Of a stretch of DNA of 64,000 nucleotides, positions 1,692 through 63,797 are shown piece by piece. A program made the position numbers and the translations under genes. A model generated the notes under the pieces. That model was given only the letters and a program-made list of their open reading frames with translations. It was not told where the DNA came from and did no database searches. The number at the start of each line of letters is the position of its first letter. The first letter of the stretch is position 1. Origin of the DNA: an uncultured Omnitrophica bacterium (GTDB taxonomy: Bacteria; Omnitrophota; Gorgyraeia; JACQQV01); assembly GCA_947085655.1 (NCBI GenBank), contig CAMTXH010000014.1, positions 9,825 through 73,824 on the forward strand, read 5' to 3'.

Positions 1692-2015
1692 ATGAAACGG
1701 ATAACGCCTTTAACGATTTTGACGGTGAGTCTGGCAGCCCTCATTTCATTTTTAGGGATGACGGGTGCGGCATCGGCATTGGATGCCGCGATCGGACCCC
1801 ATCCGGGGCTTCAGAATGAAAAACAGGTTTCAAGACACCTTTATCACGACAAGGGGGGAGCCCGGCGCGTGATTCCCGGAAAGGACGTTGCGGTTGCAAA
1901 ACTGAACGGGATTCTCTTCCGGGAGACGATGCTGCGGCTCACCGCTCCGAACGCTTTTCAGATGAAACAGCCGATTCTTCCGGAGCGGCCGAATCCCCAT
2001 AGGATTGCGCAATAA
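1692..2015 (+). CDS. Small secreted protein, 107 aa, function unknown
   Basis: ATG at 1692 (in-frame GTG at 1689) sits 7 nt after GAGGG. N-terminus MKRITPLTILTVSLAALISFLGMTGAASA is a signal peptide. Begins immediately after the upstream stop. Confidence 0.5.
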   Translation: MKRITPLTILTVSLAALISFLGMTGAASALDAAIGPHPGLQNEKQVSRHLYHDKGGARRVIPGKDVAVAKLNGILFRETMLRLTAPNAFQMKQPILPERPNPHRIAQ

Positions 2016-2062
2016 TGAATGAAAAACTTGGCGGCGAGCGCCGCCAAATATGGAGGTGTAAC

Positions 2063-4030
2063 ATGATGGGAAGAAGGAAGGTAACAAAGGGAATAGGAGT
2101 GATGACACTTGCGCTCTTCGGTGCTTTCATTCTCGCGTCGAGTGCTTACGCAGTGTGTCCACCGAAGTGTACTCTGGATGATGGCGTCATCCCTGACACC
2201 GGTTTTGGAAAAGACCTCATCGAGGGAAAAGCGGAGGTGAAGGGAAAAGCGGAGGCGCTGCCACCGGAGGGACCGGGTTATGCGTTTGAATCCGTCACAG
2301 TCAGCAAGATCATCGACCAGATTTTCAAGAAAATCAGGGGCCGGCTCGTTGCGGTTAAGACGGTAATCGGAAGCCATACTGAAGATATTTTCGGAAGCAT
2401 ACAGGATCTGATTCAGACGTCGATTTCCGAATACACCTTTACCGGACAACTGGCTGCTCAGACCGGCCGCGTGGAGGGAACATTCAGTTCAAACGGCGGG
2501 TTGACGCATGGCACCATCTACGGCTCGCAGTCCTTTGAAATCGGTGCCGGCGGGCTTGCGATGCTGGACAAGTCCTCCAACATTCAGGAGGTCTTCGATG
2601 AACTGCTCATGACCCACACGGTCACGTTGAGCAACGAGGACCGGGCGAACGACCGGGCCACCGGCGTCGTTGACCCGGAGGCCACCACGGGCGGCTCAAG
2701 GACGTTCACCAACAATTTGAACTGGCAACTCATCGATCCGGCGGGGGATCCGACGGATCCGGCGAACAGAAGGATGGTGGACGGCTATGAGGTCATGACC
2801 CTTGCGGAAACGGTCAATGATTATGCGTTCATTGCCGGTGATATCCGTGTGATCCTGGCCACGACAGATTCATCGTCCTACAATTTTGAAACCGAGACCA
2901 CGACAACGTCAGAACAAAGCCAGGAGACGATCTATCACCCGGTGACCGGGCAGATTACCGGCGGGGGTCAAAGGTTCACCTCTGTCCAGACCTCTTTGTA
3001 TGAGTCCTGCGGAGCGAATAATGAGTGCTTGATTTGGAACGAAGCAGGAACAGAGATTATCGACACCACGTTGAGCGAGGCCACTTATACCACAGGGAAC
3101 ACAACGCTGGCACTCACCTACGCGGGGAATTTGGTTGCCACTGATTCGCTCGCTGCAAGCGTCAGCTTCCTGAAGGATCCGGAGCTCATGGATTTTTCAG
3201 AGTTGCAGGAAGACCCAGAAAGGGGAGCGACCCAGGTGAGCACTTCGATCCAGAGGCAGCACTTTGACTACCGCAGACTCGCCGATGGGACCTTGACCGG
3301 GCGCCTTGAGGATGCGCGGGGAACCGTTGTGACCGATTCCCGGGTGCTGAGACCGTTAGAGACTGGACCGGGTTATGACCGGACTGGTGATCCTCTCTCG
3401 AGGACAACGCAGAACACCACGATGGAGGCGATCGTTGTCAACAATCAGGCGGTTTTTAACGACATCTCCACGACGATTAGCGGGGTGGATAACCGTCCCG
3501 GACAAGACACTCAGAGGGTCACGAGTGGAACATCCCGCACGATCCTGGCTGTGGATATGACCACAGGGGCCATTTTGGAAGAGGGTTCCTTCCGCGACGA
3601 TGTCTTCGAGACGGGAAATGCAGCAGGCGGCGGGATCGCTCAGTGGGGCTACAGCTACACGAGGACGGAATCGCACACCGTGTTTGCGGTCATCGGAAAC
3701 GAGGCGCAGGATCGCGTCACCACAAGCGGGTCTCTCACCCTTACCAAGAATGCGGCAGGAGAGGTCACAGCCCTCCAATTCAACGGAAATGTCACCACCA
3801 CCGCGTATAACCCGTTGAAGGGTGTCGCATCCATTGACCTTGCCAGGACCCGCACCGATCCGTTTGATGGGCCGAATGCCACATTCGAAGCGCCACCGAC
3901 CGCTCCGATGAACAGTCTCTCGGATGTGATCGCCTATTGTGCAGCGGGCAATTGCGTTCAGGGTGCCAATGAAACCAACGCTGATTATGCAGCGCGGCTT
4001 TTCTTCCAACCGTTGCGTAGACCTATTTAA
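2063..4030 (+). CDS. Secreted Thr/Ser/Gly-rich protein, about 655 aa, function unknown
   Basis: The ORF frame is open from 2015, but the likely start is the ATG-ATG pair at 2063-2068 downstream of GGAGG (2053-2057). Signal peptide MMGRRKVTKGIGVMTLALFGAFILASSAYA. The body is rich in T/S/G/N, suggesting β-rich structure. No recognisable catalytic motif. Confidence 0.6.
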   Translation: MMGRRKVTKGIGVMTLALFGAFILASSAYAVCPPKCTLDDGVIPDTGFGKDLIEGKAEVKGKAEALPPEGPGYAFESVTVSKIIDQIFKKIRGRLVAVKTVIGSHTEDIFGSIQDLIQTSISEYTFTGQLAAQTGRVEGTFSSNGGLTHGTIYGSQSFEIGAGGLAMLDKSSNIQEVFDELLMTHTVTLSNEDRANDRATGVVDPEATTGGSRTFTNNLNWQLIDPAGDPTDPANRRMVDGYEVMTLAETVNDYAFIAGDIRVILATTDSSSYNFETETTTTSEQSQETIYHPVTGQITGGGQRFTSVQTSLYESCGANNECLIWNEAGTEIIDTTLSEATYTTGNTTLALTYAGNLVATDSLAASVSFLKDPELMDFSELQEDPERGATQVSTSIQRQHFDYRRLADGTLTGRLEDARGTVVTDSRVLRPLETGPGYDRTGDPLSRTTQNTTMEAIVVNNQAVFNDISTTISGVDNRPGQDTQRVTSGTSRTILAVDMTTGAILEEGSFRDDVFETGNAAGGGIAQWGYSYTRTESHTVFAVIGNEAQDRVTTSGSLTLTKNAAGEVTALQFNGNVTTTAYNPLKGVASIDLARTRTDPFDGPNATFEAPPTAPMNSLSDVIAYCAAGNCVQGANETNADYAARLFFQPLRRPI

Positions 4031-4051: not shown

Positions 4052-6766
4052 ATGGATCGTCTTTCAAAAAGACAGAACACGATCCGACCGAAAGGGCCGG
4101 GGAAAAACCCGGCCCTTGTCGGCTTTCTATGGGGGGTGCTCTTTTTTGCTTTTGCACCCCTCTGTGCGGCGGTTGATTTCCAGACTTTTGAACCTTACAC
4201 CCCCCGTGTCACCGGCGGAAGCGACGCCCGCTCAGGCGGAACGCGCGATGCCCAGTTTGATGCAAGGCGGGCGGTGATTCAGTTTCAGGAAAGAGCGCGG
4301 CGGGAGGAGCGGACAAAGGAGCGGAGCGAAGAAAAAGAGATGGTGACCGGCCAAGCACTTGGCATCGAGCAGCATGTGGCCCAGGAAAAGCAGGTCAGCC
4401 AGGCCACCTCCCAGCACCAGCATCAGGACGGCGAGTTCATCTACAACCGGACCACCGGCATCGACCAATATAGCGCGGACAAAGACGGCGGTTACTGGTG
4501 GAGCAAGGTGGGGCTTCTTTTTAAGGCATGGAATGTCCTCTCCCGAGACCTCTACGCTAACGAATCCCGGAGCGAAATGACCGATTTTACGTTTAACGAC
4601 CTTTTGAACATCACCGGCATGAACCGCAAAACGGTGGATCAGGCAGGCCGGGTGACGGATGCCATCATTTCGGATATTACTTACCAGGAGGGTGAGACTC
4701 TCCGGAATTTCCTCAGCAAAAATAAAGAAGCGACGCGGACGGAAGTGAGCACCACGCATCATCCGACCGGGGACCAAACAACCCGGACCCGCATTTATGA
4801 CATTGTTTATAACGAGGAGCAGGTGGTCTCCCAGAAAGCGGAAATCTTCGACCTTTCCGGGCCGAACAACCCAATCTTGCAGGAAACCTTTGACATGAAA
4901 TACGACAAGGAAGGGAATGTCATCGGGGCGAAAACCCGCATCACCGACACCCTGACAGGGGTGGTGACCGAAAGCAAAACAGACAGCAGTTTCAACGGCA
5001 ATCGTGTCGTTTCATCCGTCTCGACCAGCAAAACATTCGACCCTTACCGGAACACCCTGACCGAACAGCTCAGTACCCAATCGGTTTCCTACGGCGGCGG
5101 GACCCAAGTGGATGCAAAAACGACCACAACGATTTATTCGACAGATAGCGAAGGAAACATCACCCGCGATTTCAAAACCGTCACCGAGTCCACGCAGGTG
5201 ATGGAGAATTTCTTCGGGATTCCGGAACTGGTGGAATCGCTCTCCAATACCCTGACGGAGGATTTCCTCGAAGTCCAGACGGTCCGCTCCGAATCCAAGC
5301 AGTTTTTTGCAAGGGATAAACATGGGAACCTTTTGAGCGCACGGGGCCTTGAAAGCGGCACCACCGTGAATTTCGACGGCTCCGTCACCCAGACCACCGA
5401 AAGCACGATGGACTTTACGGTGGTGGCAGACCAGCCGTACCTCACCGGAAGAAGCGACAAGACCTTTACCAAAGACATGAACCGGAATTCGGATTCGACG
5501 ACCGCCTCGACGCTCACCGTCCGCTTGGGCGCAAAAGGGGAGGTGTTGAATGGAACCCGTGAAGCGGAGACCTTTTCTTCCAACGGGGACGGGAGCATCA
5601 GTTCGACCCTTCGCGTGATTGAGGATTATGACCGGGCGGGCCTTGTGAATGACTTGGGGCTCATCAGACGGGTCACCACAAACCGGACCAAAAATGAAAT
5701 TGACCTGACGGATGAAGAAGAGACCCGGATTTATCTTCAGACCCATGATGATTTTAACCGGGTTCTTTCCGCGGAAGAGACGATCGAGGGAAGCGGAACC
5801 ACCTTGGATAATGTCGGAAGCTGGACAAGGACTTCCGGCCGCGTTGAATATGCCGTCAGCGAAAGAACTCTGCGGCCCTATGCGGTCAAGACCACGGTCA
5901 CCACCACCGCTTTTAATGCGATCGATCTTCTTTTGACCGAGGCGACCCAGATTCAGACGGTGGATGCGGACAAGGCCACCGGACGGATTCTGGGCGGGGA
6001 GGGCCGGACCCAAAGCACCTCCTTTGTCACAGACCAGGAAGGGAATGTGGTCAAGGTCCGGAGGGGGGATGTCTATACGCCGGCGATGGGGGACCGAGGC
6101 GACCCGGATGAGTTGATTCCGGTGGTCACGGTCCGGACGGAAAGCATCGAGCATTTTGTCGGCCTTGAGCATGCGAATGCGCTCGGTCTTACGACCCGGG
6201 AAACGGTGACAGACAACCTGGATGTCCGGTCGCACGACCGGACGGTGGTCCGCGAAGTACTGACCCAGAACTTAAACAGCGTCGGGAAAGTTCTCGGCGC
6301 CAAGGGCGTTACCAGAAGCGTTTCGGACGATGAATGGGGATACGGCGTGAGCCGGACCGAATCCTACATCGAGACGGAATATTTCCTGACGGATGACAAC
6401 CGGATTCTTCCCTCCATTCTCAAGATTGTGGAAGTGACAAAAGACCGGAATGACGGTGCTTACCGGGTGGTTGTCCGGGAGGACCGGACCCGTTACGACG
6501 ATTTCGGAAGAATTCATGAAGTGGACAATAGAAATCCGAGCCAGGGCGGGTTTGAGCGGATCTGGTATCAGGATGTCACTGTCCGTCCGATTCCGCCGGA
6601 TGCGGAAACGCCTGAGCAGATTTTTGAGCGGTTCTTTGGGAATGCATCACCTACGCTTCTTTCGGAGACTTCCGGGACTCTTCGCAACGGAGATGCCCCG
6701 ACACCCTTTCATCCCTTTGATCTGCCCCATGGGTGGATTTTAAGAATGTTTGGCCGGACAAGATAA
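4052..6766 (+). CDS. Large secreted protein, 904 aa, with degenerate YD-like repeats
   Basis: ATG at 4052 (TTG at 4049) is 7 nt after AGGAGG. N-terminal hydrophobic segment ALVGFLWGVLFFAFAPLCAAVD. Degenerate YD motifs (KYDKEGNVIGAKTRITD, TDQEGNVVKVRRGDVYTP, RTRYDDFGRIHEVDN). Thr-rich. Confidence 0.65.
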   Translation: MDRLSKRQNTIRPKGPGKNPALVGFLWGVLFFAFAPLCAAVDFQTFEPYTPRVTGGSDARSGGTRDAQFDARRAVIQFQERARREERTKERSEEKEMVTGQALGIEQHVAQEKQVSQATSQHQHQDGEFIYNRTTGIDQYSADKDGGYWWSKVGLLFKAWNVLSRDLYANESRSEMTDFTFNDLLNITGMNRKTVDQAGRVTDAIISDITYQEGETLRNFLSKNKEATRTEVSTTHHPTGDQTTRTRIYDIVYNEEQVVSQKAEIFDLSGPNNPILQETFDMKYDKEGNVIGAKTRITDTLTGVVTESKTDSSFNGNRVVSSVSTSKTFDPYRNTLTEQLSTQSVSYGGGTQVDAKTTTTIYSTDSEGNITRDFKTVTESTQVMENFFGIPELVESLSNTLTEDFLEVQTVRSESKQFFARDKHGNLLSARGLESGTTVNFDGSVTQTTESTMDFTVVADQPYLTGRSDKTFTKDMNRNSDSTTASTLTVRLGAKGEVLNGTREAETFSSNGDGSISSTLRVIEDYDRAGLVNDLGLIRRVTTNRTKNEIDLTDEEETRIYLQTHDDFNRVLSAEETIEGSGTTLDNVGSWTRTSGRVEYAVSERTLRPYAVKTTVTTTAFNAIDLLLTEATQIQTVDADKATGRILGGEGRTQSTSFVTDQEGNVVKVRRGDVYTPAMGDRGDPDELIPVVTVRTESIEHFVGLEHANALGLTTRETVTDNLDVRSHDRTVVREVLTQNLNSVGKVLGAKGVTRSVSDDEWGYGVSRTESYIETEYFLTDDNRILPSILKIVEVTKDRNDGAYRVVVREDRTRYDDFGRIHEVDNRNPSQGGFERIWYQDVTVRPIPPDAETPEQIFERFFGNASPTLLSETSGTLRNGDAPTPFHPFDLPHGWILRMFGRTR

Positions 6767-6767
6767 A

Positions 6768-9700
6768 ATGAAGAACAATCTTCTTGATCATAACCTGGAT
6801 GTCGCACGAATAGAGGAGCGGGACACCTCTATCCAGAAGTGGCAAACCCCTCGGTTGAAGCCGATTCTGGGGGCTTTGGCGCTTGTGGTTGCGGAGCTCT
6901 TTTTCGTGACACAGGTCGCCTGGGCCCTGGACTTGAATCATATCAATGCCTTCAAACGGCAGTTCCGGCAGCGGACCCTTGAGATGCAACGGATGATGCT
7001 TCCGCAACAGATGGATCGGAAACGGCAGGAACAGCAGGCGGCCCTTGACCGGAAAAACCTTGTGATTGAGAACTTCGGCAACACCGACTCCTCCTTCTTG
7101 GCGCTTGCGGATGTGGAAAGTCAGCCGCTCACGGAAGATTCGGTTCCGCGGCCGGTCTACCGGCTGGGGGAGGAGGAAAAGGATGACCGCAAGGTCATTC
7201 AACTCGCCCGCGGTCCCTTGGTCGGCGTTGAAGTCCTTGGGCGGACGACGGACGAGGCGGGTTTTGGCCATGTGACCTTACGAACCGAGGACGGCGCTCT
7301 GAAAGATGCCACCATCGGCTCTTCCTTATTTACGAAAGTGCCCGCCAAAGAGAAAAAACCGGTTGCGCCGGGAACCTATCTTGCCGAGGGCCTTGCCGGA
7401 GGAGCAGGTCTCCTTGAAGCGAGGGAGACTTTGGGCGGAGAACTGATTACGAGTCTTTCCCCCATCCTTCATATGAGGGAAGAGACACCCGAAAAAGCTT
7501 CCTTGCGCGAAACCATTCAAAGGCAAACCCAAGTTGCCGAATCAGAAACCGTTTTACCCGAAACTTCCAGTACCCTTCCGGTTGATATTGACACATTCAA
7601 AGACGAATACGGGCAGATTCCGGTGATCGATGCCCGGACCGGCAAGGCGAAGACCAGTTTTGAAAAATACATCGACAGTCTCTCCGAACTCTTCCATGCG
7701 GCAGGCCGCGCCGCCCTCAAGGCATTCCTCGAGGAGGCGGAGGAACTGGAGAATATCGAAAGGACCGATCCTGAAGCGGCGCGGATCGCCAAGGCCCACC
7801 TCACAGGAAAACGCGAACGGGACGGCCAAGAGCCACCGAACCCCGGCCAGCAGGATACCCCGAGAGACAGATTCCAATTCTCCAGTTCGGGCAACGCCCA
7901 GTTTGACGCCTTTCTCCAGAATCTGACGGAAGAAATGGAGAGGCGTCTTGCGGAAGGCCCGGAGACGACCAAAGATTCCTACACGTATGTGGCGAAAGAG
8001 GTCGGAGTTAAGTTTGATGCGGACGGGAATGTGGTCTCGACCTATACCCGTTATGTGAAAAAGACCTTCACCCTCCACCGCGGAGAACTCCGACTCATCG
8101 GACGGACCACCACAACCAATTATGAGAATGCGGACGGCACCACCGGCACCAAGGTGGAGATGGCCAAGTTCGGCTATGATGACCGGGGCCGGCTGGTGAC
8201 GCGGGATATTGAAATTCTCCTGAACGGCTTTGTCTACGACGAAGACCTGGAGAGAGTGACCGGACCATTTAACAATTTCCGGATGACGCTCCACCAGCAA
8301 GCGATTCGGGATGAGGAAGGCCAGATCGTTAAATTCATCTCTGTCTCCACGGTCGGGGACATCGAAAACCGCTACGTCCTTGAAATCGAAGAGCGCGACA
8401 CCGCCTACCAGAAGACCCGGTGGAAAGAAACCACCACCGTCACGAATCTCCGGACCGGAGAGGTCCGTACCACCGAGACCGAAGGACACGCCACCGGCTT
8501 TGACGACCAGGGCCGCGCCACCGGCTTTGAAATCAACGAACATGTCTTCGGCGGTCAGGATGATTACTTCCGGACGATCACGATCGAAGGGATCGTTTAC
8601 GGCAGAGACAACGAATGGGTGTCCTTCCGGCGGACCATTGAAACGGATGGCTTTGTCGGATTGCCGGACGGCGGCGGGGAGATGGTGCATCGGCGGGAGG
8701 TTTATGATCATTGGGTGGATTCCGAGACGGGTGACGCGATGATCACCACGAGAGTGTATGAAAACGGCGTATTGATTGACACCACCACTTACCGTCAGAG
8801 TGAGATGCCCGAATATATGGCCCTTTACCTGGACGGCCGCTTTGTCGCCCTGGCTCCTCTTCTTGGGATCAATTTCGAAACCTTTGTCAACGGCACTCTG
8901 GATGCCCAGAACTTCCTGACCGCCATGGGCATCAGCATGCCGCTTGAGACGCTGCTGGGTCTTACCGGAGACAGCGAGCTTGCGGCCGCTTTTGCCCAGA
9001 TGGACCCGGATGCAGTGGATGCGCTGGTCGCCGGTGCGTTGATGGCGCTTCTCTTTGAGGTGGTTAAGACTTACGCCGAGAATGTGGGACAGGATATCGC
9101 GGATGAGGAAGCGGAGAATCGGAGGACAAAGGTTATCAATAACTTTGTCGACAGGATGCCGGATCACCTCAAAGCGGCGGCACGTCAAATTGCCGAAAAC
9201 CTCTTTGACAATCTTGCAGACGTTCTGGCCGATATTCAGCAGGATCCTGCCAAGATGGATGCCCTGATCGGCCGCTTAAGGGATGCCGGTTTGACGGGCA
9301 ATCTCTCCAAGGTCGAACTCCGCTCGATGGGTTATACCGAAACGGTGATGTCCAGCACAAGCGACATCATCGAAAGGCGGACCGTTATCTTCGAATATGA
9401 CGAGGAAGGACGCATCTCCCAATCCCTTGAAAGGGTCCACCGCTTCGGGAGGGACAATGACGGAAAGGTCATTGACCAGACCTACAGCATCGAGCGCTCC
9501 GATTACCGCTACAGCGAAAACGGGGTCCTGATCGGCTATCGCGAAACCCTCATCGGCGTGAATGAAAACGGCGAAGTGACCCCCGGATTGAAAGTCGAAC
9601 GGGATGTCACGCCGGAATACGGCCCGGATGGCCGGCTCATCCGGATGACCTCGGTCAATACCTACAGCATCACCGATGAAAGAAGGGCGGAAGTCCAGGC

Positions 9701-12700: not shown

Positions 12701-15700
12701 CAAGGGACAGGGAATCCTCTCGCTGGATCTGGAGGGAGGGGAACTGGCCGTCTCCTTCATCCATCCGCAGGGCCTTGAGATCGCCCTCGGTAACCAGACG
12801 GGGCAGGTCCTGCATGAGTGGAACGCGGCGCATCCTGAAAACCAAATTGATCCGAACCGCTTGGATGCGAATGCGGCAAAGAATCTCTTCAGTTTCTTCA
12901 GCGAAAAACTGAGCCAGCTCCAAAATCCGGATATGGATATGGCGGAGCGGGAGGTGCGGGTCAACCAGATCCGGCCGCTGGTTCAACTGCTCATTGCCAG
13001 GATGGGTGAGTTGGAAGGGCTTCTCGGAAGCGATGAGATCCAGACTCTGAAGAATAGCATAACCACCTTCTATCAAATTGCCATTCAGGTTGTGGAATAT
13101 AAGATAAGTGCCGTCCAAAAGACCATTTCAATCTTGAAGGAAAATGCAACCGGCCCCGGGGCTGCGGATTATCAGAACCATCTCCAAAAACTGGAAACTC
13201 AATTGGTTCAGGCGACAAATGCACTGACCCATTTGGAGGACTCCATCGATCAAAACCATTTTGATGCGGCGGATGTATTCCTTTCAAACGCGATGAACCT
13301 TCCGAGTCTTCTGACCCTACGGAGTGAAGCGGCGGGACTTCTTTACAAGCAGGGCGGGATCCAAGAGGGTAGAGTCAATGCCCTCAAGACCCTTTTGAAA
13401 CTCTATGAAGCCGAATTGAAAGAGGCGAGGAGCACAGCCGCTCCGGATACGACACGGATCGAGGATTTAACCAAGGCGATCTCTTACCTTAATTCCGCCA
13501 TCAACACCGGCCTGATCAGTCCTGAACTGCAGAATATTCTTTTGACTCCCCAGCGGAGAGTCCGGCTTCTTTTGTCACAGGCCCTTCCGGAACTGCTGAG
13601 GACCCAGGCGGCAGGAGGAGATATTACGAAACTAAAAGCAGACCTCCTTGCGAAGGCGGAAGAAATCAGTCCGGCATTCAGGGAGAGACTGGAAAACGTC
13701 ATTCGTATTTCTGCCGGCATCACCAGTCCGGAAATGGAGAAACTTTCTTCCGAAGCCCGGGCTGAAAGGGTTGTAAACATTACCCGGACCGAACTCATTC
13801 CGGCGGTGTTGGAGTTGAACCGATTCCTCGAGACGCAGGGGTATCTTTTGTATGCGGTGCCGTCTGCGGACGGCCGCAGGGTGGAAAGCCGTGTTCTGGA
13901 TATCAATGAAATCCGCCGGTACAAAATCACCCTCAACGGGAAAACGCATGAATTCCGCGTCTTCTTTGTGACCTATCCGGGGGCCGACTCGGGTGTTCCC
14001 GGCGGCGCCCTCCATGATCTTGAGACCCGGCTCAGCCATTACGGATACAGCATGGGGGATTACAATGTGGTTCTCCAGGATAACCTTGGCCGGTTTGTGG
14101 AAGTGATCAACGACTCAACCTTCAGGGATGTGGAAGGGCAGCGCCTTGAGGGCTTGGTCGCGGGCCAAGCACTGACCGTGGCAGGGTATCAGGTCATTGC
14201 AAACCTCACTGCAGACCACGAAGTGGGTCATGCGGTCGAGCGGCTACTCGGACATATTGATCCAACGGATGCCCCGGCACAGGAGACAGCCGCCTACTTC
14301 CGGGAATTGGCCGGCGCCGAAACATTCCAAGAGGCATGGGGATCGCTTAAGGATCTCTGGGGGATGGCCAAACATGGTCCGGAAGGGGCGCCTCATACGA
14401 TTGCCGCCCGAAACGTCTTACGCGCACTTTATACACGGCTGGCTCAAAAGGAGGGGGGAGACTTTAATGACCTCTCAACCCATCCGAAATTCCAAAGGGT
14501 CCTGATGCGCCTTGCGGAGGCGAACCTTGACGGATTCCGGTCTCTTATCGGAGAAGGGTACGAGGCCCACTTTGGCAGGGCATTGGTCCAGCCGGAACTT
14601 GAAGAGGGCTCTACCATCCCGAACCGGCCGGTCAGTCTTGAGGCGGTTGGGCTTGCGCTGAACACAGCGGACGACACCTTCATCACAAGGGCCGAAAGCG
14701 CCTACAACCGGCTCGGGGCATTTACCGACGACATTATTACTGCAATCAACAATAACGATTTGGATGCGGCCAAAGGGCTTCTCCAGTCCTCTGGGGCGTT
14801 TGTTACCGACATAACCGCCTTCTTCAACGAGGTCAGCTCGGTGATGGACGCGCTGAGTCATGTTCCCTCCAGCATCTTCGGAGAGCAGATGTCTCCGGAA
14901 GAAACGGCAAATCTGAGCCGGACCCTTCGTCAACTCGGGGATATTGTTGCCGAAGAGGAACTGACGCTTTCGCAAGCCCAGCGCAGCCCAACGCTCCGGA
15001 TGACGGATAGCGATTCTATTCCTGTGGCCGCGGTGGTGAACGCTGTGAATGCGGCAGAGGTGATCCATGAAGATGACACCATCACGAAACCGGGTAGTGT
15101 CAAAACAGCCGACGGCACATCGGTTAACTATAACGAGCACCGGCACCTTCAAATCCAGAATAACGACACCCAGACCCTCACAACGATTGACCGTTACTTC
15201 CAAGGGGAGAAACTTGTCTACCTTCAAGTGAGCGTCAAGGATCTGGTCACCGGCCGGATCACGAATTTCGCCTATACCGGAACGATGGAGTTGAACAAAT
15301 CGGGCGGGCTTAACCTGATTGATGCAAAAGTGTTCAGGACCTACACGACCCTCGCGACCCTGAACGGCGTCCGGCAAGAAGTTCTCATCGAAGAGATTTC
15401 CATTATAAAGGATAACGAACTCATCAGCTCGAATCAGGTCCTGAAGAGTCTCGAAGGGATTCCCCTTGGGACTTTGGATCCGCAAGAGCTCCAGAATCAA
15501 TTGAACGGAGTGGATGCCTCCGGAGCCGCTCTCCGGTTTACCGCGTTGGATGACCCGAAGAATCTCGGGGAGATCGAGGGCCTTAGGGGAAGAGAGAAAC
15601 TCCTGACACTTTATGAAGTGACCCGGACGGTTGAGACAGAGGAAGGGCCAAAGACAGAGACCTTCCATGTCCTTGCCAATGATGATTTCTCCGAGCAGTT

Positions 15701-24700: not shown

Positions 24701-27700
24701 AGCACTCAAGAAGGGCGACCGGCTCCTGGTGCATAATTATTACAAAGAAGGAGAAAATCTGGTCCAAAGCGCTGTTTTCGCAAGGGACTCCCTGGGTGGT
24801 GAAAGAAAAATCGGACAGGTTCGGGTTGAGCAGATGCCCTTGAGAGAGTTCAGATTCAGCACCGTACCGGGCCGGGAGAGTCTCTACAGAAGACTCCTCC
24901 GTCACGGCGTTCATTCGGACCAGACGGTGGCGATCCGGACTTTCCAGGATCATCTCGGCAATGATCTGAGCGATGTGGGCGGGGAGAAAATCCTGCATGT
25001 GAGCGCCATTCAAGCGGGCAATGCCGCCCTTCCGACGACGGCGCGCCATCTCTTCGGCAGAGCCGTGACAAGCCAGGTCTCCACCGAAGAGCGGAAGCCC
25101 GGACTCCTTGTGATGGAACTTGACTTCATGCAGAAGGACTCGATTGACATGCGGAACGACTCGCCCACCGGAGAAGTCGAGAATTTTGAAAGTCAGGTCA
25201 GCATCAACTATCATCCCGGGCTGATGGACGCCTTTGAAAACCGGTTCGGATTCGACCCGGAGAGCAGCCATACCGTTGCAGGCGTTGACAAGAAACTCTA
25301 TCTATTCCTCTCCCTCTTTTACCGGATGAATATCCACGAGTTCCGCGGACACCTACGGTTTGAGAGCCCCGTCCTGAAAGAGGCAGTGGCAAAAGAACTG
25401 GGTCTTACATCACGCATCCTGACGGAGGATCTCCTGAAAGAAATTTTGGCAAAGAAGGATCAACTCGGAATCACGGTGGTTCCATCCGAAGCGCGTCCCG
25501 GCATCTTGGAAATCCGGCTTCGAAACGGGGATGTTTTGGTCGGGTTGGATGATTCCAACAACATTGCGACGCTCGGCACGGAATTGACGGATGCAAACGG
25601 GCGCTTCAGCGGATTCAAGCATTTTGACAGCCACGGCTCCTACAAGATTCAGACCAGCGAGCGGATCGCGGAGACTCTGAGCGGCGCGCATTACCGGGCG
25701 ACCGATCATGCGGCCCGCTTCATGTGGTTCTTCGGTCTGAAGCAGGAGCAGCACAGCGCTGACCGGATTGACCAGAATATCGAGGAGATGGTCCATCGGT
25801 ACGGTGCGCGCGAGGCGGATGATTATCTCTCTCTTATTCATGATCCGGTATTGAAGGAAGATGTGAAGCATGTGACCAAGCGCTTCAGCGAGGGCCACTT
25901 CAAATCACTTGATGAACAGAGAACACACCGCCTGGCGCGCTACTACGGGGTTGAGCCGGAGCGTTCCCTGACGCCTCCTGAGCCGCCCAAGACCCGCCTT
26001 GAGAGCGGACATTCCATCCTGGATATTCCGGCGATGGTTCCGATGATCATGTCGATCGGTCAGGGTCTGATGGTCGTGGACCGGGGAACCTACGATAGGA
26101 TCAAAGGCGATTATGAAATAGAGAAACTGGCCGATCCGAACTCGCCGTTTGTGCGGGTGATGTCCCTTTTCTTTGAAACAGACACGATTGATTTGGGCAA
26201 CCTTCAGAGTGCGGTTGAAGCGCGGCTTAGCCGACTCGGAGAGCTTTCCATTGCGGATCGTCGCGCCCTCTCCGAACGGCTGACTTCACTCTACCAGGTC
26301 ATTGAAGGGGCCCGGCTCCTTGCCTCCGCCTTCCGGTCCGGTCCAACCGCTGAGCGGGATGCCTTGGTCTATGAAGTGGGGCAGGCCCTTGAAGCGCTTA
26401 TCCGGCAGGTTGCGCACATTGAGGTGGGTGAGGGGATGTTGTTTGAGACAAGATCGTTACTTTCCGCCCTCCGGACCTTTGCGCTCATCTTTAGGGATGA
26501 CAAGGCGTTTGGGCAGGCGTTTAACCGGATGGCCTTCTTCTTCGACAAACAGGGCGGACGGCTCCTGAATGACAGGGAGCTTTCGGCACTCATCCGGAGC
26601 CGCGGAAAGAATATCTTCGACGGAGGCGCATTCCCGATCGAGAAATTCGTTACGTTCTATAATGAAATGTTGAGCCGGGGCATCAAACCGAACGAGGCGG
26701 AACAGGCAGTTTTAAGCATCCTCACGCTGAAAGACCTCATCGACCGGGATCTTAAGACGGGTCGTTACTTTGTCAAACACCCGGAGAATCCCGGCTCCAT
26801 TGCCGCATTCGACCGGAGCAAATCAAGCGATGAATCCTCGTTCATCCTCGCTGTGCATGAAATCATTCATACGTTCCAGCATACCCATAAGCCGCTCATG
26901 GATGCGTTGAGGAACTACCACCGATCGCTTGCCAATCGGACAGTGACGGTTCAGGGGAAAGCCATGAACGGTCTTGAGGTTGTGAAGATGGTCCTGAGCG
27001 CCAACGGAGAATATAAAACCAGCGATCCGGAACTTATCGTGAGAGAATTCCACGCCCACTTCCGCGAGCCGCGGCAGTTCCTCGGGAAGTTGCAGGGCAA
27101 GCTTGACCAGAATGCCCGTCGCTTTATCGAAGAGATCCGGTTAGAGCTGAGACAGCTGGAAGCGCCGTTCCTTGCGGAGGTGCTGGGTGTTGCAGGAGAA
27201 GAGGCGGCAGCGGCTGTTCGGGATGCAGGGGTCAAAATCACGAATTTTGAGTCGATGCAGCATACGGGCGGCCAGGAACTCAAGACACTTCCGCTTCTTC
27301 CGGGTGCACCGCCAAAACCGTCGATTCCGATGTCGTTCAATTTGCCTAAGATCAACATAGGCCTTGAGGTCATTCCGGTGGATGAGGATAATGACGACCA
27401 GTTTGTGTTCGATGGCAATGTCGTTCAACTCGCATCAGTCCGTTCTGCCAAACGGGCCTTTGCTCAGGAAGGACCGGTGGCGACGGAGCAACCGACGCGG
27501 ACGCGGTGGGTGGAGGAGGCAGAGGCGAAAACCGCTCAGGCAAAACCGGTTCAACTGAGCGAGATGCGGCCCAAACAGGAAGCGGTCCCGCCTGAGATGC
27601 GCGAATGGTTCGTCGTCGGTGAGATTGCCAGAAAAAGCGGCGGCATTCCGGCCGAGGGACGGAAAACCATCCAGAAAATCCTCCGGGCGAATCCCGAGGC

Positions 27701-28256: not shown

Positions 28257-31200
28257 GTGAAAAATTCAGAAGAAAAAAGTCCAGAAATCAAGGGACGATT
28301 TCCATCTTGGTTTAGACCTCTTGCCTTCATTGTGGTCGAAACCTTTTTATGGACGACTCTCTCTTTTGATATTGCACTCGCCTTTGAACATCACGCCGCC
28401 GTTCATCTCCGCCCGAAGGCCTCCACACTGAAAGACGGCGGAGTGAAGGGACTCCGGGAAGCGCTCCGCGGAGAGGAACTTTTGGACTTGCCTGCCGAAC
28501 CCTCGGTCGCTGAGGACGGTGCCCGAAAAGGAAAGCCGTTCCGGGGAAAATATCCGACCCTCCACTTCCTGCACCGACCCAGCGAAACCGGCGGTCTTGA
28601 ACTGTCCGGTTTCGAAACGGACATCATGAAGATGGCCATTGCACCGAGCGCCGGCTCCAATGAAGGCCTGTCATTGAGCAATGAAGAGGCCGCCGCCTTC
28701 TTCCGCTTTGCGAGAGCGGTCGGTTTTGAAGACCTCATGATGATTCAAAATATGAATGACCGGCTTAACCGGGTACCGGAAGGAGACCGGAGGCGGCTTC
28801 TTCAGGGTGCTGTTCCAAGTCTCAAGAAAAAAGTCGTTCCTGTTCTTCCCTACGTTCTCAATCCCTTCGATGAGGGACTCGCCGAAATTTTATTGAGCGG
28901 AACAGAAGAGTTGAATTATTCCCTCCAGAGCCGCTTGAGCGGCGCGTTTGCCAAGGCAAGCGAAGTCAAGGGAACACCGGTAGAAAAATTAGCCCATCTT
29001 AGAAATGAGCTTTTGGAAGAAGGGGACCCCTCCAAAGCAAGGCTGCTGCGCATCCTCGAATTGATCGCAGAGCTCCAGACACCGGAGGCCAAACGGAAGG
29101 CCATCGTGGCCTTCACCGCACGGTATCTTTTCTCCGTGGAGAATAGCTTGCAGCTTGTGAAAATTTTTGGGCTTGCGGAAAGGGGATCGGAGACCGCTTC
29201 GGACGGCGCCAGAAAAACCATTGAGGGGGGCTATCCTTCGTTTGAGTACATGCATCAGCACTTCAGCCCGGCCGAACTTGCCCTTGTCCGCTTTATGATG
29301 CATCCGGATGCGGCGTTTGACCTGCAGGGTCGACTGAGCGTTCCGGAAATCCTCTTCTTTTTCAAAGCACTCCATGCGGTCGGTTTTGAGAATCTCCTTC
29401 TGATTCAAAACGTGGAGAAGGAACTTGAACAAACGGCTTTGCAGAAGAAAGAAATCCAAGAAGCGATTCATGGACTTCAGGCAAAAATTCCCCCTTTGCT
29501 TGAAAAAGTCACCTTTTCAGGCAAAGCGACAATCGGTTTAAGCAGTATCTTGGCGACCAGAACCGAAACGCTGGACGATGGCGTGAAACATCGCCTCCAA
29601 AAGGTCCTCGGGATGATTCAGAGGGCCAACGACCGATTTGCGGTTCAGACCGTGGACGATCTTCGCGAAGGTAAGATGCGCCTTCCGGATTCCAAGCCGA
29701 ATCAGCGGCTTATCGCGATTCTCCGTTTAATTGCCGACCTCCCGACCGTTCCTGAAAAAGAGAAAGCGGCCGTCGCTTTTGCCAAGCGCTTCCAATTGGA
29801 TGACCAAGATCTTTTTCACCTCCAAAGGGTTATGGGCGTCTCGCGAGTGATGTCCGGCCGGCTTCCGAACGAAGAGCAACTCAGAAAGGGGCTTAACCGT
29901 TACATCCGCCTTTTGATTCTTTCTGTTTTGAGAAAGGGATCCCCTGCGAAAGTGCTGGCGAAACCGACACTTCGCGATTCCCAATTCAGCGACGAGGAGA
30001 TCTCCCAATTTCTGGTGGAGGCCTATCAGCACCCTGACCGGCTTGTTGAAACGGCACGTCGTCAGTTTGAGGAAGCCCGGGCAGGACTTGTGCAAAGGAT
30101 TAGTCCAGAGGATCTGCGGGGATATGAACATGCGCTGCTTCAGATGGGTCCGGAGATTCGCGGCTTTTTGGAGCAGTATGCCTTGGTCTCTCCGGAAGGA
30201 ACAGAGGGAAGAGCCGCTGTTGCATCCCGTGACCGCCCGCCTGTTTCTCCTCTAGAACCGGAATCTCAAACTGCTGAAAGCAGCGGGCCGCTCAACGAGC
30301 TGTTGTCGGTCATCCGCGATCTTTTTGTCCAGGAGATCGGTTATCCGCTCCCGAATGACGCACTTGAACTTTTCCGAAGACCGCTGCAGAAAGGGCAAAT
30401 CACCCCGGATCAGATCATCTTTCAAATTACGGAATTGAGCGACCGGCTGACCGACAAAGAAAAAAGAGCCCATCAGGGAGACCGGATTTATTGGGTTCGG
30501 TTTGCAAAAGAGGCCATTGCCATCGAACCGATTACCCTGATCCAGCATGGAAAAACCCCCTCTCTCAAAGGGGTGCCCTATCAAAAAGAGCTTTATGAAT
30601 TGATGAATCGGGGTGCCATCACCAACACCCAGGCCTACTGGACCAAGGCGCTCATCCGGCATGCCGGCTTTGATCCGAAAAAGCTGGGCGCCGTCCTCCC
30701 GGCCGAAAATGGGAGCAGGCGGTTTGTGGACTTTGGAGCGCTTATCTCGGTTTTGGAGGCAGCGGGTAGCGGCAAATACACGGATGAGACAAAGGCGAAC
30801 ATTGTGTACGATTTCTTCCGGCATATTGCGACCCGGGAATCCAGAAAGGAACACTTTGAGGATCCGCGCACCCCCCTTCATTTATTCGGCGCACTCTATC
30901 CTTTTGTGGAATCCAACGTCCACGCATTTATTTACGAGGTGACGGAGGATATCACAAAAGGGGAAAAGCGTTTTCTCTATGACCCCGAAGGAAAACTCCT
31001 TCCTCCTGAAAAGACGGATGAGGTCGTTCAAAAAGTCTCCCGTTTGCTTGCCGGCAAAGGAAGAAAACTGAAGCGGGTGGATCAGTATCTGCTCGGGCGT
31101 GTCGTGAAAACTGTCCTCACAATGGACTACGAAAAGGGCCCCTCTGAGAGAACCCGCGACGGCGGCACCCGGCTGGCGAGTCGGGCGAGAGGACGCCTCA

Positions 31201-34200
31201 GGAGAGCATTTCATAACTTCCTCCTTTTGACGCAGTTGGTATATTCGGTGACAGTGAGCGTCAATCCTCCATCTGCTGCCGCGGCCCTTCCGGCAAGAGT
31301 TGCTGTACACCAAACGGTCTCTGTGCAACTTCCAGAACCCGAGTTTTCAGAACCGAGGGTTGAGACAAAGGCGGTTGATGAGTCAAATAAACCGATTCTC
31401 TCCAGAGGAAGCCGTGGAGAATCGGTTGCCGATTTGCAGAGGATGCTCGAGAAGACGGTTCATTTCGACGAACTTGGACAACTCCTTGCAGGGACAGGTG
31501 TGGATATCCCGAATCTGATCGCAGGATGGAAAATCGACGGTCTTTACGGCTGGCGGACCGAGGCGATGGTTTATGCCTTCCAGACGAAATACGGACTGAC
31601 GCAGGATGGGGATGTTGGTCCAGCGACTTGGCCGAAACTCGAAAGTGCTTCAGAGACAGTCGGAACGCCCATCCATGCAAGGGCGAGTCTGAATGAAAAT
31701 CTTCTCCCGCAGGAGCCGCATGATGTCACCGAAGGGCCGCTCCTTGCGTCACTGACACCTGATGTCATGTCCGATGTCGCGATGACAGCCGCCTTTCAAC
31801 CGGCAGCTCCGTCCCCTGTTCCCACATCCGCTCGGCCCGGCACCCACGCCGTCGTTGCCCCTGTTACGAAAACAGCAGTCTCACCCGCCGGCACCCCTCC
31901 GACGCCCCCTTCTCCCGCCGATACGCTTTCGGTCACGGCTGCCGCGACCGCTGATACTTTGCAGGTTTCGGGCGTTCCGCTTCTGACTTATGATTACGTT
32001 TCGGGCGATTTGTCCAAGTACCCGATGTATCTTACGGAAGACAGAGACGGACGGAAAGGACGATTCGGCGGATTCACGGAAGAGGAGAGCCGGCAGGTCA
32101 GACGGGCCTTGCGGGGAGAAGACCCGGCCTTTCCCGGAAAATACAGAGGAACCGGAGCCATTGTCTGGAGGAGTCTAGGACAGACCCTCTGGCGGAATGC
32201 AGAAGGCGCCCGGGAGATGATTGAAGAGGCCGAAAACTTTGTGAACGAGGCGGTTTCTAAAACCCCTTCCACGGATGTCTCAAAGTGGAAGGCCTCTTTG
32301 TTCGCGCCTTTCCCTGTCGCAGGTGTTCAGGATGCGGTTTTCCTCATGGATCCGCTTGGGATTCCGGCAGCCAGAATCCCGGAGTATGTGGCGGGGCTTT
32401 CAAAGGCGGGGGTCAATACCCTCTTTGTCAACACAGGCGGTTTGATGATGCTGGATGAGGCCAAGCGGCCGGAGGCGCGGGCCAAATACAATTTCCTCCT
32501 TCTTGAAGCAAGGGCGAGGGGAATCCGGACCGGGAATTGGGTCTCTGACGTGGTTCTCATGGGCGATCCGTTTCTCCCGATGGCGCTCGACGATGTTGAA
32601 CTGATCCGGAAATATTTCAACCTTTTGGCGGACGAAGTCCTTCCGTTCGATTTCCATCTGGTTGACCTTCAGCCGATGGATGATCTTCAGTGGGCGAATT
32701 ACGTCTCCACGGTCCGCTTCATTCAGACCGCCCTTGCGGTAAACGGCGGCGGGGACCTTTTCGTTTCAGTCGATCCTCAGGAAGTTTCTCACGCCGAATA
32801 CTGGAACCTTCCGGACGGCGTCGGATACATGGTCAAGGCCTACGCGACGACAGAGGCGGGAATCCTCCATAACGTCTATCAGGCCAAACTCGGTTTTGCG
32901 GCATCCCTCTTTGACGGAGTGGAGGTGTCGGATGGCGTTCGGTCTCTTTTAGAGCAGGCGAGGTCCGTCAGCAAAGAGTTGGAGCGGCTCGCTGCCGTCA
33001 GAAACCACGAGGCAAGCCGCGGCCCGGCGGAAGCGGCTTTCCAGAAGGGACTTGAACTTCTGAAAAAAATCCGGGAGGCCTTCGAACCTGCCCTCGGCAC
33101 CGCCCGGACCGCCGAACGGCCTTATACGTTTGTGGTCGGAACCTCTCCGCGTCTTGAAGACGGCGACCGGAGTTTCTTTAGACAGGAGGACCGGATTGCC
33201 GCCGTGACCGGGGAAACAGCCGCATTTTTGGAGGGAACGGACGGAGAGACCTTTGAAGGGCGAAGCATCCATTTCAATTCCTTCCAGGACCAACTGCACG
33301 TTTTGAAAGGGGGTAAGACGAGTTGGGCGAAGGGTGTCCGGCTTCAGGTGGTGGACCCGGCCGTTCGTTGGACGGTCCAAGCGATTGAAGATGCGGTGAA
33401 TTTTATCCGGCCGGGCGTGAGACCGAAGCGGACCGAAGAGGTGAGCCGGCCTCTTCTCACCCAAACGGGCGATTTTCTGATATTGAAGGGAAAAGGACTT
33501 TCCGGCGGTATTTTCGGGGCGAGTTTTGAGGTGCCCCTTGCGGATAATCTAGGAATTCTTTACGGCACCATGACGGGACTCCGTGGCATTGCCTTTACCC
33601 ATGTGGCAGATATCCAGAAGGAGACGTTCAGTCTGCGGGTGGTGGATGCGGACGGAAACGTTGTCCCTTTGAAAGATGCGGACGGAAATGAAAGACCGTC
33701 CCTCAACGCGGAGGAACTCCGGGCATTGACCCAAGCGGGAAGGGCTCTTCTTCTCCCAAGAGACCGAGGCAAATTGTATGCCGAGGCGACCTTCACGGTT
33801 GCCAAACGACTGGATGACCGTCCCAAAGATTTAGGAAGGATCTATAGCGGCAACATCGTCATTCCGTCCAATCTTCCGACGCAGTTTGGATGGGAGGAGA
33901 CATTTTCAGAAGAAGTGATCATCCCGGCGGGTGTTGCAGAAAGGGAGATCACTGTTCGCTCCCCGATCGCAGAAGGGCAGGTCAGTCAGATGCGGATGTT
34001 TGCAGTGAGTGAGGTCCGGCCCCATCTGGAATTCATCTCGCGTGAAGCAATCAGCGGCCGTGAAATTCCGCGCTTTATGTTCGGGGAAGAGCGGTTCCAA
34101 ATCAGCGGGGAGGAAGTTGTCCGGGAGGGCCATGAGGTCGTCTTTCCCCCGCTTTTTTACGGTGTCGCGGATACCACCGCCTATTTTCCGTTTGAATTTC

Positions 34201-62655: not shown

Positions 62656-63797
62656 AGCCCAAAATTCTCATTCTTTGCCTTTTGGTTCTATTGCTTCTGC
62701 CTGTCAAGGGTGCGGCGGAGGCCGTTTCTTTGGCGGAGTTGCCCCCTCTCAATGAGGGGATCCTGGATCCGACCGAGCGGAATTTCGGGTTCCGGGGCCG
62801 GATCGGCGGTTTCAGTCTTCCCCCCTCCCGCTACGGGACTTTTTTGGACGACGATCAATTTTATCCGGAAGGAGAAGACCGGGAATCGATTAAATACATG
62901 TATGAACGAAAAGGGGAAGATTCGTTTGTGGGGACCTATGTCATCCTTGCAGCAGACCTTTCCCAATTCAAGACGCTCACTTTTTTTGTCAGGGGCCAGA
63001 AAGGGGGGGAGACCTTCGAGATCGGATTGAACGATGTGATTTCCAACCGACGGGAGGATGCGGTTTATGTCGGTTCCGTCTACCGGTATCTCCCGGGCGG
63101 GATCACCACCGAATGGCAGAAAGTCACGATTCCTCTTTCGGACTGGTTTGGTCCGGACCTTTCGATGGTGTTCAGTCTCGTCTTCAATTTCAATGAGGAG
63201 GGACGGGGGGTCTTCTGGATCGATGAAATCGTCTTCCATACAGACTCACTCGTGGACCGGGAAGCCGAAATCGAAAAAAAAGGGCATCTCCTTTTGGATA
63301 ACTTTGACCACAGCGACCAGAATCTTCTCGGAAGGAAGAGCAACACCTACAAAAAACTTCCCTCCGTCTGCCGGTTTTCGCGGGTTGTAGAGGGTCGCTG
63401 GGGAGAGTCGGGGCGTTCCCTCCGGCTTGATTACGACAAAAAAGCGACCGGTTGGTGCGGCTATTACACCCTTCTCAACGAAATCGACGGAGACTTTTAC
63501 GACCTTTCCTGGTACGACCGGGTCAGTTTCAGGGTGAGGGGCGAAAAGGGTGGAGAGATGTTTGAAATCGGGATGGCCGACCGGAACTGGCTCACCATCG
63601 GCGATTCGGTCAAGGCGGGGCCGATTGGCAAATATCTCCCGGGCGGGATCACCACCGAATGGCAGGAAGTGATCATTCCCCTTTCCGATTTCGGGCTTCT
63701 CGATTTTGCGCAGATGGGCTCCTTTGTCATTAATTTTTACAAAAAGCAGGAAGGGGTCATTTATGTGGATGACCTCAAATTCCATTTGAGCCGGTAA
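62652..63797 (+). CDS. Secreted protein (381 aa) made of two tandem copies of the GWCGYYTLL/TEWQ β-sandwich domain
   Basis: The ATG overlaps the upstream TGA (ATGA). Signal peptide MKPKILILCLLVLLLLPVKGAAEA. Copy 1 is about 62900-63240, copy 2 about 63290-63790. An identical 33-nt segment, tatctcccgggcgggatcaccaccgaatggcag, occurs at 63087-63119 and 63633-63665. Confidence 0.75.
   Translation: MKPKILILCLLVLLLLPVKGAAEAVSLAELPPLNEGILDPTERNFGFRGRIGGFSLPPSRYGTFLDDDQFYPEGEDRESIKYMYERKGEDSFVGTYVILAADLSQFKTLTFFVRGQKGGETFEIGLNDVISNRREDAVYVGSVYRYLPGGITTEWQKVTIPLSDWFGPDLSMVFSLVFNFNEEGRGVFWIDEIVFHTDSLVDREAEIEKKGHLLLDNFDHSDQNLLGRKSNTYKKLPSVCRFSRVVEGRWGESGRSLRLDYDKKATGWCGYYTLLNEIDGDFYDLSWYDRVSFRVRGEKGGEMFEIGMADRNWLTIGDSVKAGPIGKYLPGGITTEWQEVIIPLSDFGLLDFAQMGSFVINFYKKQEGVIYVDDLKFHLSR

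Follow-up and report, generated by a model that had tools for sequence, protein, structure and literature searches.

A conserved N-terminal leader and a recurring DGG junction motif in the giant proteins of an Omnitrophica operon

Introduction

Giant bacterial proteins have been catalogued by the hundreds, and their targeting, orientation and possible processing are at issue. A 64,000-nucleotide stretch of DNA from an uncultured Omnitrophica bacterium (GenBank assembly GCA_947085655.1, contig CAMTXH010000014.1, positions 9,825 to 73,824 of the forward strand; hereafter the window) raises these questions in one place: five adjacent giant or multi-enzyme proteins of a single operon, G1–G5, begin with a similar N-terminal leader. 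What kind of signal is this leader, and how is it joined to the proteins that follow it? From a computational analysis of the locus and its relatives we conclude, with moderate confidence, that it is a lineage-specific, sequence-constrained Sec-type signal peptide.

The window is part of a 74-kb contig, and the contig-wide negative results reported here cover these 74 kb. The same sequence is present in contig CAYJWX010000009.1 (GCA_964374045.1) and in four sequencing-run assemblies. Position numbers are window coordinates throughout, and the window genes all lie on the forward (+) strand in one closely packed row.

Results

Leader copies and their conservation

The leader is conserved in G2, G3, G4 and G5, with G1 and the upstream gene A as weak members. 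In G2 (28257–46559; 6100 aa) it occupies 28257–28448, with a core at 28314–28382 (RPLAFIVVETFLWTTLSFDIALA), the box HLRPKA at 28404–28421 and the first DGG junction at 28434–28442. The G3 leader (46566–46736; gene 46566–50735, 1389 aa) has a core in which Gln replaces Glu (46602–46670; RWVGLMVAQAFVFGTLLTDTAWA), followed by HLRQRP (46692–46709) and DGG (46722–46730). That of G4 (50948–51172; gene 50948–55915, 1655 aa) has its core at 50984–51052 (NLLALLVTELFLGSLLLIDSAYA) and TLRPRA at 51074–51091, with DGG at 51158–51166 after a 20-residue insert, and that of G5 (55922–56062; gene 55922–60271, 1449 aa) combines a core at 55931–55999 (RLISVILIETFLLSSLGTEFVRA) and LLRARS at 56024–56041 with a degenerate junction, DGS, at 56051–56059. 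The G1 leader (6768–6977; gene 6768–28025, 7085 aa), with its core at 6855–6926 (LKPILGALALVVAELFFVTQVAWA) and a QFRQRT box at 6960–6977, has four residues deleted relative to the other leaders and no DGG. The gene A copy (59–172; core 68–139, IKTIGLLSAAAFFVLAMGAEAAYA; PLHNRAL box 152–172) has no mid-helix Glu. The initial annotation had described a common leader in G1–G5, and the five peptides are present where it placed them; it overlooked the sixth, weak copy on gene A. It had also counted LRP[KR]A in three of the five proteins, a motif that is exact in G2 and G4 only, the others having LRQRP (G3), LRARS (G5) and FRQRT (G1).

Similarity among the copies is far above that expected from composition. 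When the n-region, the hydrophobic region and the post-region were each shuffled separately, the block-shuffle z scores were 11.0 for G2–G3, 8.1 for G2–G4 and 6.6 for G3–G4; the gene A leader, which is also matched (as P0005) in the profile search described below, gave z = 9.5 against G3. A leave-group-out test used an 18-sequence leader alignment from which one orthologue group was omitted in each round of hidden Markov model (HMM) scoring. The omitted G2-type leaders scored 54–70 bits, the G3-type 53–55 bits, the G4-type 26–53 bits and the G5-type 27–47 bits, and the two weak members scored 10.8 bits (G1; E 2e-5) and 14.2 bits (gene A). Seven non-member signal or anchor N-termini of the same contig (B, C, D, H, I and the 107-aa and 203-aa proteins) reached at most 2.6 bits. 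A six-frame HMM scan of all loci collected gave members at 40 bits or more, and the next best sequence scored 6 bits.

The leader also evolves under constraint. The 23-residue core of the G2-type leaders is 87–100% identical in six orthologues whose protein bodies are 30–48% identical, and the codon changes within the core are mostly synonymous (synonymous to non-synonymous ratios of 7:0, 12:2, 8:3 and 11:3). The paralogous leader cores are only 39–55% identical in DNA sequence, which indicates that the copies are old and do not derive from recent gene conversion.

Two start sites merit comment. Public gene calls begin G3 at Met18 (giving 1372 aa), losing the n-region and part of the leader helix (46566–46616); the upstream ATG at 46566 is supported as the start by conservation with the G3-like protein P0010. 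The G4-like gene call of related locus L007 is similarly shortened at its N-terminus, and its true start is probably at L007 7176.

Anatomy of the leader

The leader consensus is R-x2-[AGST]-hydrophobic x4-E-x-F-L-aromatic-[TS]2-L-x2-[DE]-x-A-x-A, followed after about 10 residues by L-R-P-[KR]. Numbering from the conserved Glu as position 0 in the 18-sequence alignment, there is Arg at −8 in 15/18 leaders, a small residue at −5 in all 18, and Leu or Phe at −4 in 16/18. Glu itself is present in 15/18, the remainder having Gln, Val or Ala. It is followed by Phe at +2 (17/18), Leu or Phe at +3 (17/18), an aromatic residue at +4 (11/18), Thr or Ser at +5 and +6 (15/18 and 14/17, respectively), Leu at +7 (14/17) and Asp or Glu at +10 (17/18). 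Ala is present at +12 in 16/18 (otherwise Val or Ser) and at +14 in every leader, and none has Pro at +15. The Leu-Arg-Pro-[Lys/Arg] box lies at +27 to +30, with its Leu and Arg each present in 17/18. Spacing is constant apart from G1.

Three regions can be distinguished. In every one of the 18 leaders the n-region is positively charged (net +2 to +6), which favours an N-terminus that remains inside the cell. The hydrophobic stretch that follows is about 15 residues long and is broken by the conserved Glu; its Hessa free energies, summed for each of the 18 leaders, range from +0.4 to +5.7 kcal/mol and reach at least +2 in 16, and the N-termini of G2 and G3 fall below the Kyte-Doolittle threshold of 1.6. 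The same energy calculation yields −6 kcal/mol for the genuine anchor of gene H, and the unfavourable values of the leaders indicate a segment too polar to be a stable membrane anchor. At its end the leader follows the signal peptidase I rule, with Ala at −1 of the predicted site in 18/18 and at −3 in 16/18, no Pro at +1, and Asp or Glu at −5 in 17/18. The two Ala residues of A-x-A lie on different faces of a helix, an arrangement that helix packing does not account for. The hydrophobic and acidic positions also form a heptad pattern, L/F(−4), E(0), L(+3), L(+7), D/E(+10) and A(+14), which places both acidic residues on one helix face.

The G2 orthologues (P0006–P0009 and L011; window 28299–28319) additionally share an n-region motif, F-P-x-W-[FI]-R-P, just ahead of the core.

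Distribution and portability

A profile of the six window leaders was compared by HMMER with 1.84 billion representative proteins (E ≤ 0.001). The 16 matches comprise five window proteins, ten foreign proteins with an N-terminal leader and one unrelated repeat protein (P0014) that is matched outside the leader helix. The foreign proteins are G2-like (P0006, P0007, P0008, P0009 and P0012), G3-like (P0010 and P0015) and G5-like (P0013 and P0016), together with a fragment (P0011). No ordinary signal peptide was among the matches, which bears out the initial suggestion that the leader goes beyond a generic Sec signal and is specific to its family. G4 itself is absent, probably because its cluster is represented by a different sequence, and the coverage of this search is thus imperfect.

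Other searches returned little. G5 as query found no relatives in GTDB species genomes or JGI metagenomes, and an alignment of G2-type leaders matched two loci in JGI metagenomes and none in GTDB genomes. Word-indexed searches with G3, G4 and a seven-leader alignment gave self-matches or none, and are uninformative, since the G4 query missed even ordinary carbamate kinases. The lineage carrying the leader is rare in public data.

The foreign leader proteins derive from at least five other metagenome sources in which gene order is the same as in the window. Locus L008 contains G4-like, G5-like and H-like genes, L007 contains the end of a G2-like gene followed by G3-like and G4-like genes, and L011 and L012 contain the end of a G1-like gene followed by a G2-like gene. 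All carriers found are orthologues or paralogues belonging to one syntenic operon, and the 1.84-billion-protein search, with its imperfect coverage, returned no further carriers from the focal genome; the new cargo class that had been envisaged for the leader is supported in part only.

Within this operon the leader is portable, and its gene retains it when the protein behind it is exchanged. The positional orthologue of G5, P0016 (L008), aligns with it over residues 1–57 only, and the bodies of the two are unrelated. Among the G4 orthologues, an aminotransferase replaces carbamate kinase in one and a NAGPA domain is added in another, and the leader is kept.

A junction motif at module boundaries

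The motif DGG-x-[KR] is present at 13 sites in G2–G5 (28434–60196), compared with ~0.8 expected from shuffles (per-protein p of 0.0005–0.0015 for G2, G4 and G5), and is absent from G1 of the window. Ala, Ser or Thr is located two residues ahead of the Asp at 10/13 sites, and the relatives, with DGG sites in L006, L007, L008, L011 and L012, mostly have A-A-R-D-G-G. The initial annotation had treated DGG[VM]K as a part of the leader; DGG is instead a junction motif that recurs throughout these proteins.

Beyond the copies that follow the leaders, G2 has internal sites at 31158–31166 (aa 968; ERTRDGGTR) and 39246–39254 (aa 3664; SAKDGGNKGI). Both of these, the only alignable internal G2 sites, are kept in P0007 (at aa 572, and at aa 3246 as ASDGGNKGI). 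A further G2 site at 46098–46106 (aa 5948) marks the start of a shared C-terminal module, whose BLAST alignments to L007 and L008 start no more than two residues from DGG in all three proteins. G4 encodes a GlmU-like nucleotidyltransferase (residues 233–499), a left-handed beta-helix (LbH; ~660–960) and a full carbamate kinase (1302–1607). Its site at 52736–52744 (aa 597) lies at the boundary between the nucleotidyltransferase and LbH modules, and the match of G4 residues 309–601 to L007 1–331 (the nucleotidyltransferase module) ends at DGG in both. Two more G4 sites bracket carbamate kinase, one at 54821–54829 (aa 1292), 8 residues ahead of the domain, and one at 55784–55792 (aa 1613), 6 residues past it and followed by a 40-residue tail. 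In G5 the site at 56984–56992 (aa 355) separates the first soluble module from a multi-helix membrane module, those at 57695–57703 (aa 592) and 59666–59674 (aa 1249) lie ahead of and past the acyl-CoA dehydrogenase module (655–1152), and the last, at 60188–60196 (aa 1423), comes before a C-terminal tail of 24 residues with ESGV at its end.

In five proteins, drawn from three organisms, Pfam and NCBIfam domains take up 34–57% of each sequence, yet the 19 DGG sites considered all lie outside these domains (p ~1e-5 by multiplying domain coverages). P0007, P0008 and L011 share a ~95-residue module with DGG at both ends. Taken together, the location of the sites at module boundaries and the ends of the module matches make the proteins look like strings of cassettes with one junction motif. 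The leader looks like the first cassette, with the first copy of DGG-x-[KR] parting it from its cargo and the same junction parting the later modules. The DGG directly after the leader is not kept in the G2 orthologues, which have EGG, DGS, DT or SS at this position. The junction may be a site of polyprotein cleavage or a linker motif; no relevant account of a DGG cleavage motif, or of signal peptides with a conserved Glu, came up in the literature searched.

The tails after the last DGG of the G4-type and G5-type proteins (55793–55912 and 60197–60268; L008 genes ending at 9994 and 13801) are 21 to ~40 residues long and end in [ES/NG/TS]GV-stop. They could be a C-terminal signal, or could arise because the last codons overlap with the ribosome-binding site of the following gene.

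Genomic context

Gene A (59–829) is followed by B (836–1681), a 107-aa gene (1692–2015), C (2015–4030) and D (4052–6766), and G5 is followed by H (60295–62655) and I (62652–63797). Genes A and B encode small secreted proteins that are alike directly after the signal peptide (NPFDPLHNRAL in A and EPVDPMDMREL in B); Pro/Val/Lys-rich repeats and two copies of the repeat TRPIG.P.TA.VDGGG are further features of A. Gene B was considered as a leader carrier and rejected, with 1.7 bits in one HMM scoring and ≤0 bits in the leave-group-out test. C and D had no match among PDB sequences.

G1 and G2 have nearly no known domains in Pfam and NCBIfam scans, and in both the internal membrane helices are clustered. 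A ~150-residue C-terminal module is common to G1 (27765–28022), G2 (46098–46556) and G3 (50217–50732) and has relatives in L007 (2–1483) and L008 (3–3917); it has the pattern LLKLYxLLAHYFxGG...LPxGF...QL..ID and matches no family. G1 also contains two HExxH motifs (~0.2 expected), HEVGH at 14217–14231 (aa 2484) and HEIIH at 26856–26870 (aa 6697). These were considered as a candidate protease; HEIIH is not kept in the G1-like orthologues of L011 and L012, and HEVGH is outside their coverage. The first module of G5 (56057–56992; aa 46–357) has, by eye, a protein-kinase-like pattern (IVNLDILFLRN ... VVLRDLGNL) and the second (56993–57703; aa 358–594) is a bundle of ~4–6 membrane helices, with no Pfam match above threshold for either.

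The operon is followed by three consecutive paralogues encoding CBM30/CBM9 proteins (60295–63797; L004 11165–11776). H and its L008 counterpart are 63% identical, a conservation far above that of G3–G5. The upstream flank of the contig contains a TPR-spermine-synthase-like gene and a ROK-family gene, and the downstream flank a CBM30 gene, a glucosamine-6-phosphate isomerase-like gene and a nucleotidyltransferase gene.

Discussion

Three observations, the constraint on the core, the retention of the leader on replaced bodies and the acidic residues on one helix face, point to a portable N-terminal module whose sequence is specifically recognised. The A-x-A motif with an acidic residue five before the site, the helix too polar for an anchor and the charged n-region suggest a cleavable Sec-type signal whose N-terminus stays inside. 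We infer its cleavage, its topology and a recognition partner from these features. The proposed signal would consist of a positive n-region closing with the near-invariant Arg, a hydrophobic region with its mid-helix Glu, and a polar c-region, [ST]-[DE]-x-A-x-A. It would insert with the N-terminus inside the cell, and signal peptidase I would cleave after A-x-A to leave a new N-terminus bearing the L-R-P-[KR] box ~10 residues in. The acidic stripe would be read by something specific, perhaps a part of the translocon or an insertase such as YidC, whose groove is Arg-lined and carries a conserved Arg, or perhaps the sister leaders. The outcome would be that all of the co-operonic giant and multi-enzyme proteins are directed to one export or assembly site. 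An exported location fits the neighbouring functions, because G2 contains a peptidoglycan-binding domain and H, I and the next downstream gene (203 aa) encode proteins with carbohydrate-binding modules.

Several points weigh against this interpretation. Cores of the G3-type and G4-type orthologues are just 30–48% identical, so the strong constraint is not uniform. Cleavage by signal peptidase I is predicted from the −3/−1 rule alone, and no recognition partner for the leader was identified in the contig or related loci. In E. coli, export would be hampered by a Glu halfway along the hydrophobic region and, for G3, by the Arg-Arg that occupies +2/+3 of the predicted mature N-terminus. If the leader exports its proteins, then carbamate kinase, the GlmU-like enzyme and acyl-CoA dehydrogenase would sit outside the cytoplasm, and the enzymes of G4 and G5 require ATP, UTP, acetyl-CoA or FAD and acyl-CoA. 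They make little sense in the periplasm unless they are delivered to another cell or re-enter the membrane. The membrane module of G5 (358–594), which has no counterpart in G4, could bring the dehydrogenase back to face the cytoplasm. The tension between export and enzyme function would disappear if the proteins were delivered into another cell, although this is speculation. The same puzzle of cytoplasmic-type enzymes is met in a recent preprint on Omnitrophota giant proteins.

If the leader were instead an uncleaved signal-anchor, the helix would stay in the membrane, and its Glu/Asp stripe would assemble the co-operonic proteins or bind a basic partner helix to form a membrane-tethered complex. 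The heptad stripe (−4, 0, +3, +7, +10 and +14) would suit such a role, as would the strong purifying selection on the helix, which is unusual in cleaved signal peptides, the encoding of every carrier in one operon of kept synteny, and the additional membrane helices of G1, G2 and G5. We nevertheless think it improbable. The invariant A(+14) and near-invariant A(+12) on different helix faces, with no Pro at +15 and a polar residue five before the site, are the signature of signal peptidase I; the insertion energy is unfavourable in all 18 leaders, and no helix bearing a conserved basic residue emerged as a partner. Still less probable is that the leader is a leftover of gene duplication, an ordinary Sec signal peptide with only a generic export role. 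Its three-part layout with A-x-A is standard, its carriers all belong to one operon in which G1, G2 and G3 also share a C-terminal module, and the G3-type and G4-type cores diverge about as fast as their bodies. However, the G2-type core is far more conserved than the bodies behind it, with mostly synonymous changes, the leader is retained on a replaced body, Glu, Phe(+2) and Asp/Glu(+10) persist across groups with only 39–55% core DNA identity, and generic signal peptides fail to score against the profile.

The junctions raise a further explanation, which is compatible with a specialised signal peptide and which we consider unlikely: a dedicated protease would remove everything up to the first DGG-x-[KR] as a long pro-region and would also cut at the internal sites, making these genes bacterial polyproteins. 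The excess of sites over the shuffled expectation speaks for it, as do their complete absence from within domains, the close bracketing of carbamate kinase, the match ends that fall on DGG in different proteins, the two of two alignable sites kept between G2 and P0007, and the ~95-residue module bounded on both sides. A conserved linker or structural cap would, however, yield the same pattern, and the junction after the leader is not conserved in G2 orthologues and the motif is missing from G1. No protease domain was found in the operon or contig, and the classical double-glycine leader pattern (hydrophobic at −4, −7 and −12) is not fitted. A class III, prepilin-like signal is very unlikely indeed; here a prepilin peptidase would cut after the small residue five before Glu, and the resulting pilin-like N-terminus, four hydrophobic residues and then Glu, would serve a type II or type IV-like secretion system. 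In its favour, every leader has the small residue, the next position is Phe, Leu, Val or Ile, and Glu would become +5. Known bacterial prepilin peptidases require Gly before the cut, whereas Ala, Ser or Thr is much commoner than Gly at this position. The two preceding residues are hydrophobic rather than charged, the next 19 are much less hydrophobic than a pilin helix, and the invariant A-x-A would be left unexplained. The NCBIfam prepilin model (TIGR02532) and Pfam N_methyl (PF07963) are unmatched at E up to 10, and no secretion-system genes were found in the contig. It also speaks for this reading that Omnitrophota giant genes are reported elsewhere to adjoin type II/Tad-like systems and small genes with class III signal peptides (bioRxiv 10.1101/2023.11.21.568195).

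The leader matches no Pfam or NCBIfam model, and several known signal classes were tried and rejected. It is close in concept to the extended signal peptide region (ESPR; PF13018) of very large autotransporters and two-partner-secretion proteins, a conserved family-specific sequence in the N-terminal signal of very large exported proteins, which also has an acidic residue within a hydrophobic stretch (VAVSEL in ESPR, IVVETF in the leader). ESPR is thought to tune targeting or translocation beyond supplying hydrophobicity. It is, however, an N-terminal extension added before a second, ordinary signal peptide, whereas the leader has a single hydrophobic region between Arg and A-x-A, a post-cleavage L-R-P-[KR] box and a distribution restricted to one operon of an uncultivated lineage; PF13018 is unmatched at E up to 10. 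The YSIRK-G/S, KxYKxGKxW (accessory-Sec glycoproteins) and SipW-cognate signals are similar in that a conserved motif routes large surface proteins while cleavage by signal peptidase is retained. Their motifs are located in the n-region, unlike the Glu of the leader in the middle of its hydrophobic region, and their cargo is genome-wide; the accessory-Sec and SipW partners are known and linked, whereas none was found for the leader. The corresponding NCBIfam/TIGRFAM models are unmatched at E up to 10. A Tat signal (S/T-R-R-x-F-L-K) was rejected, with Arg-Arg in G5 and P0016 only, a single Arg in the other groups and no Tat model match, as was a lipoprotein signal, since all of the leaders lack a lipobox Cys around the predicted cleavage site.

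Type IV pilins and pseudopilins (G|FxxxE) share with the leader a small residue, a hydrophobic residue and a Glu five after the would-be cut, within an N-terminal hydrophobic helix, and differ in their conserved Gly, their far more hydrophobic helix and the lack of an invariant A-x-A after it. Double-glycine leaders cut by C39 peptidases likewise have Gly-Gly closing an N-terminal pro-segment, but the leader here is 45–75 residues long, contains the export signal and departs at −4, −7 and −12 from the LSxxELxxIxGG pattern, with [AS]-x-D before DGG in place of a hydrophobic residue at −4. Giant Omnitrophota proteins are reported to have C39 domains near their N-termini, and West-Roberts et al. 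propose that C39 or S8 domains might cut them into pieces (bioRxiv 10.1101/2023.11.21.568195); no C39 or S8 domain was found in the operon or contig with Pfam and NCBIfam. MARTX proteins are also very large and exported, with effector modules shuffled between strains and a short recurring boundary motif. Their sites are Leu-based and cut by an internal cysteine protease domain, whereas no protease domain, MARTX repeats or homology were found here.

The initial annotation had anticipated a dedicated machine for the leader, with a partner peptidase or sortase-like gene. Pfam and NCBIfam scans of the operon proteins, their domain-free segments and the flanking genes identified no peptidase, sortase-like or secretion genes in the 74-kb contig or related loci, and the invariant A-x-A points to ordinary signal peptidase I rather than to a special processing enzyme. 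The leader is best read as a specialised Sec-type signal peptide coupled to a DGG cassette architecture, and not as a demonstrated new sorting system. Both the leader and the DGG junction lie outside the curated family libraries Pfam and NCBIfam.

We regard as doubtful the more elaborate possibility of a secreted polyprotein system, in which the private leader would bring the proteins to one site, a protease would cut at DGG-x-[KR], and the released modules, including the nucleotide- and CoA-dependent enzymes, would act inside another cell. If true, this would amount to a strategy for delivering effector cassettes whose junction motif is not described in the libraries or literature searched. 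Apart from this, the locus gives two short sequence handles on giant proteins, a constrained leader with a mid-helix Glu and a DGG junction where modules meet. Recognition of the leader by a specific factor would define a small, private route of export. Cleavage at the junctions would mean that some giant bacterial genes are polyproteins, and would help to explain cytoplasmic-type enzymes behind export signals.

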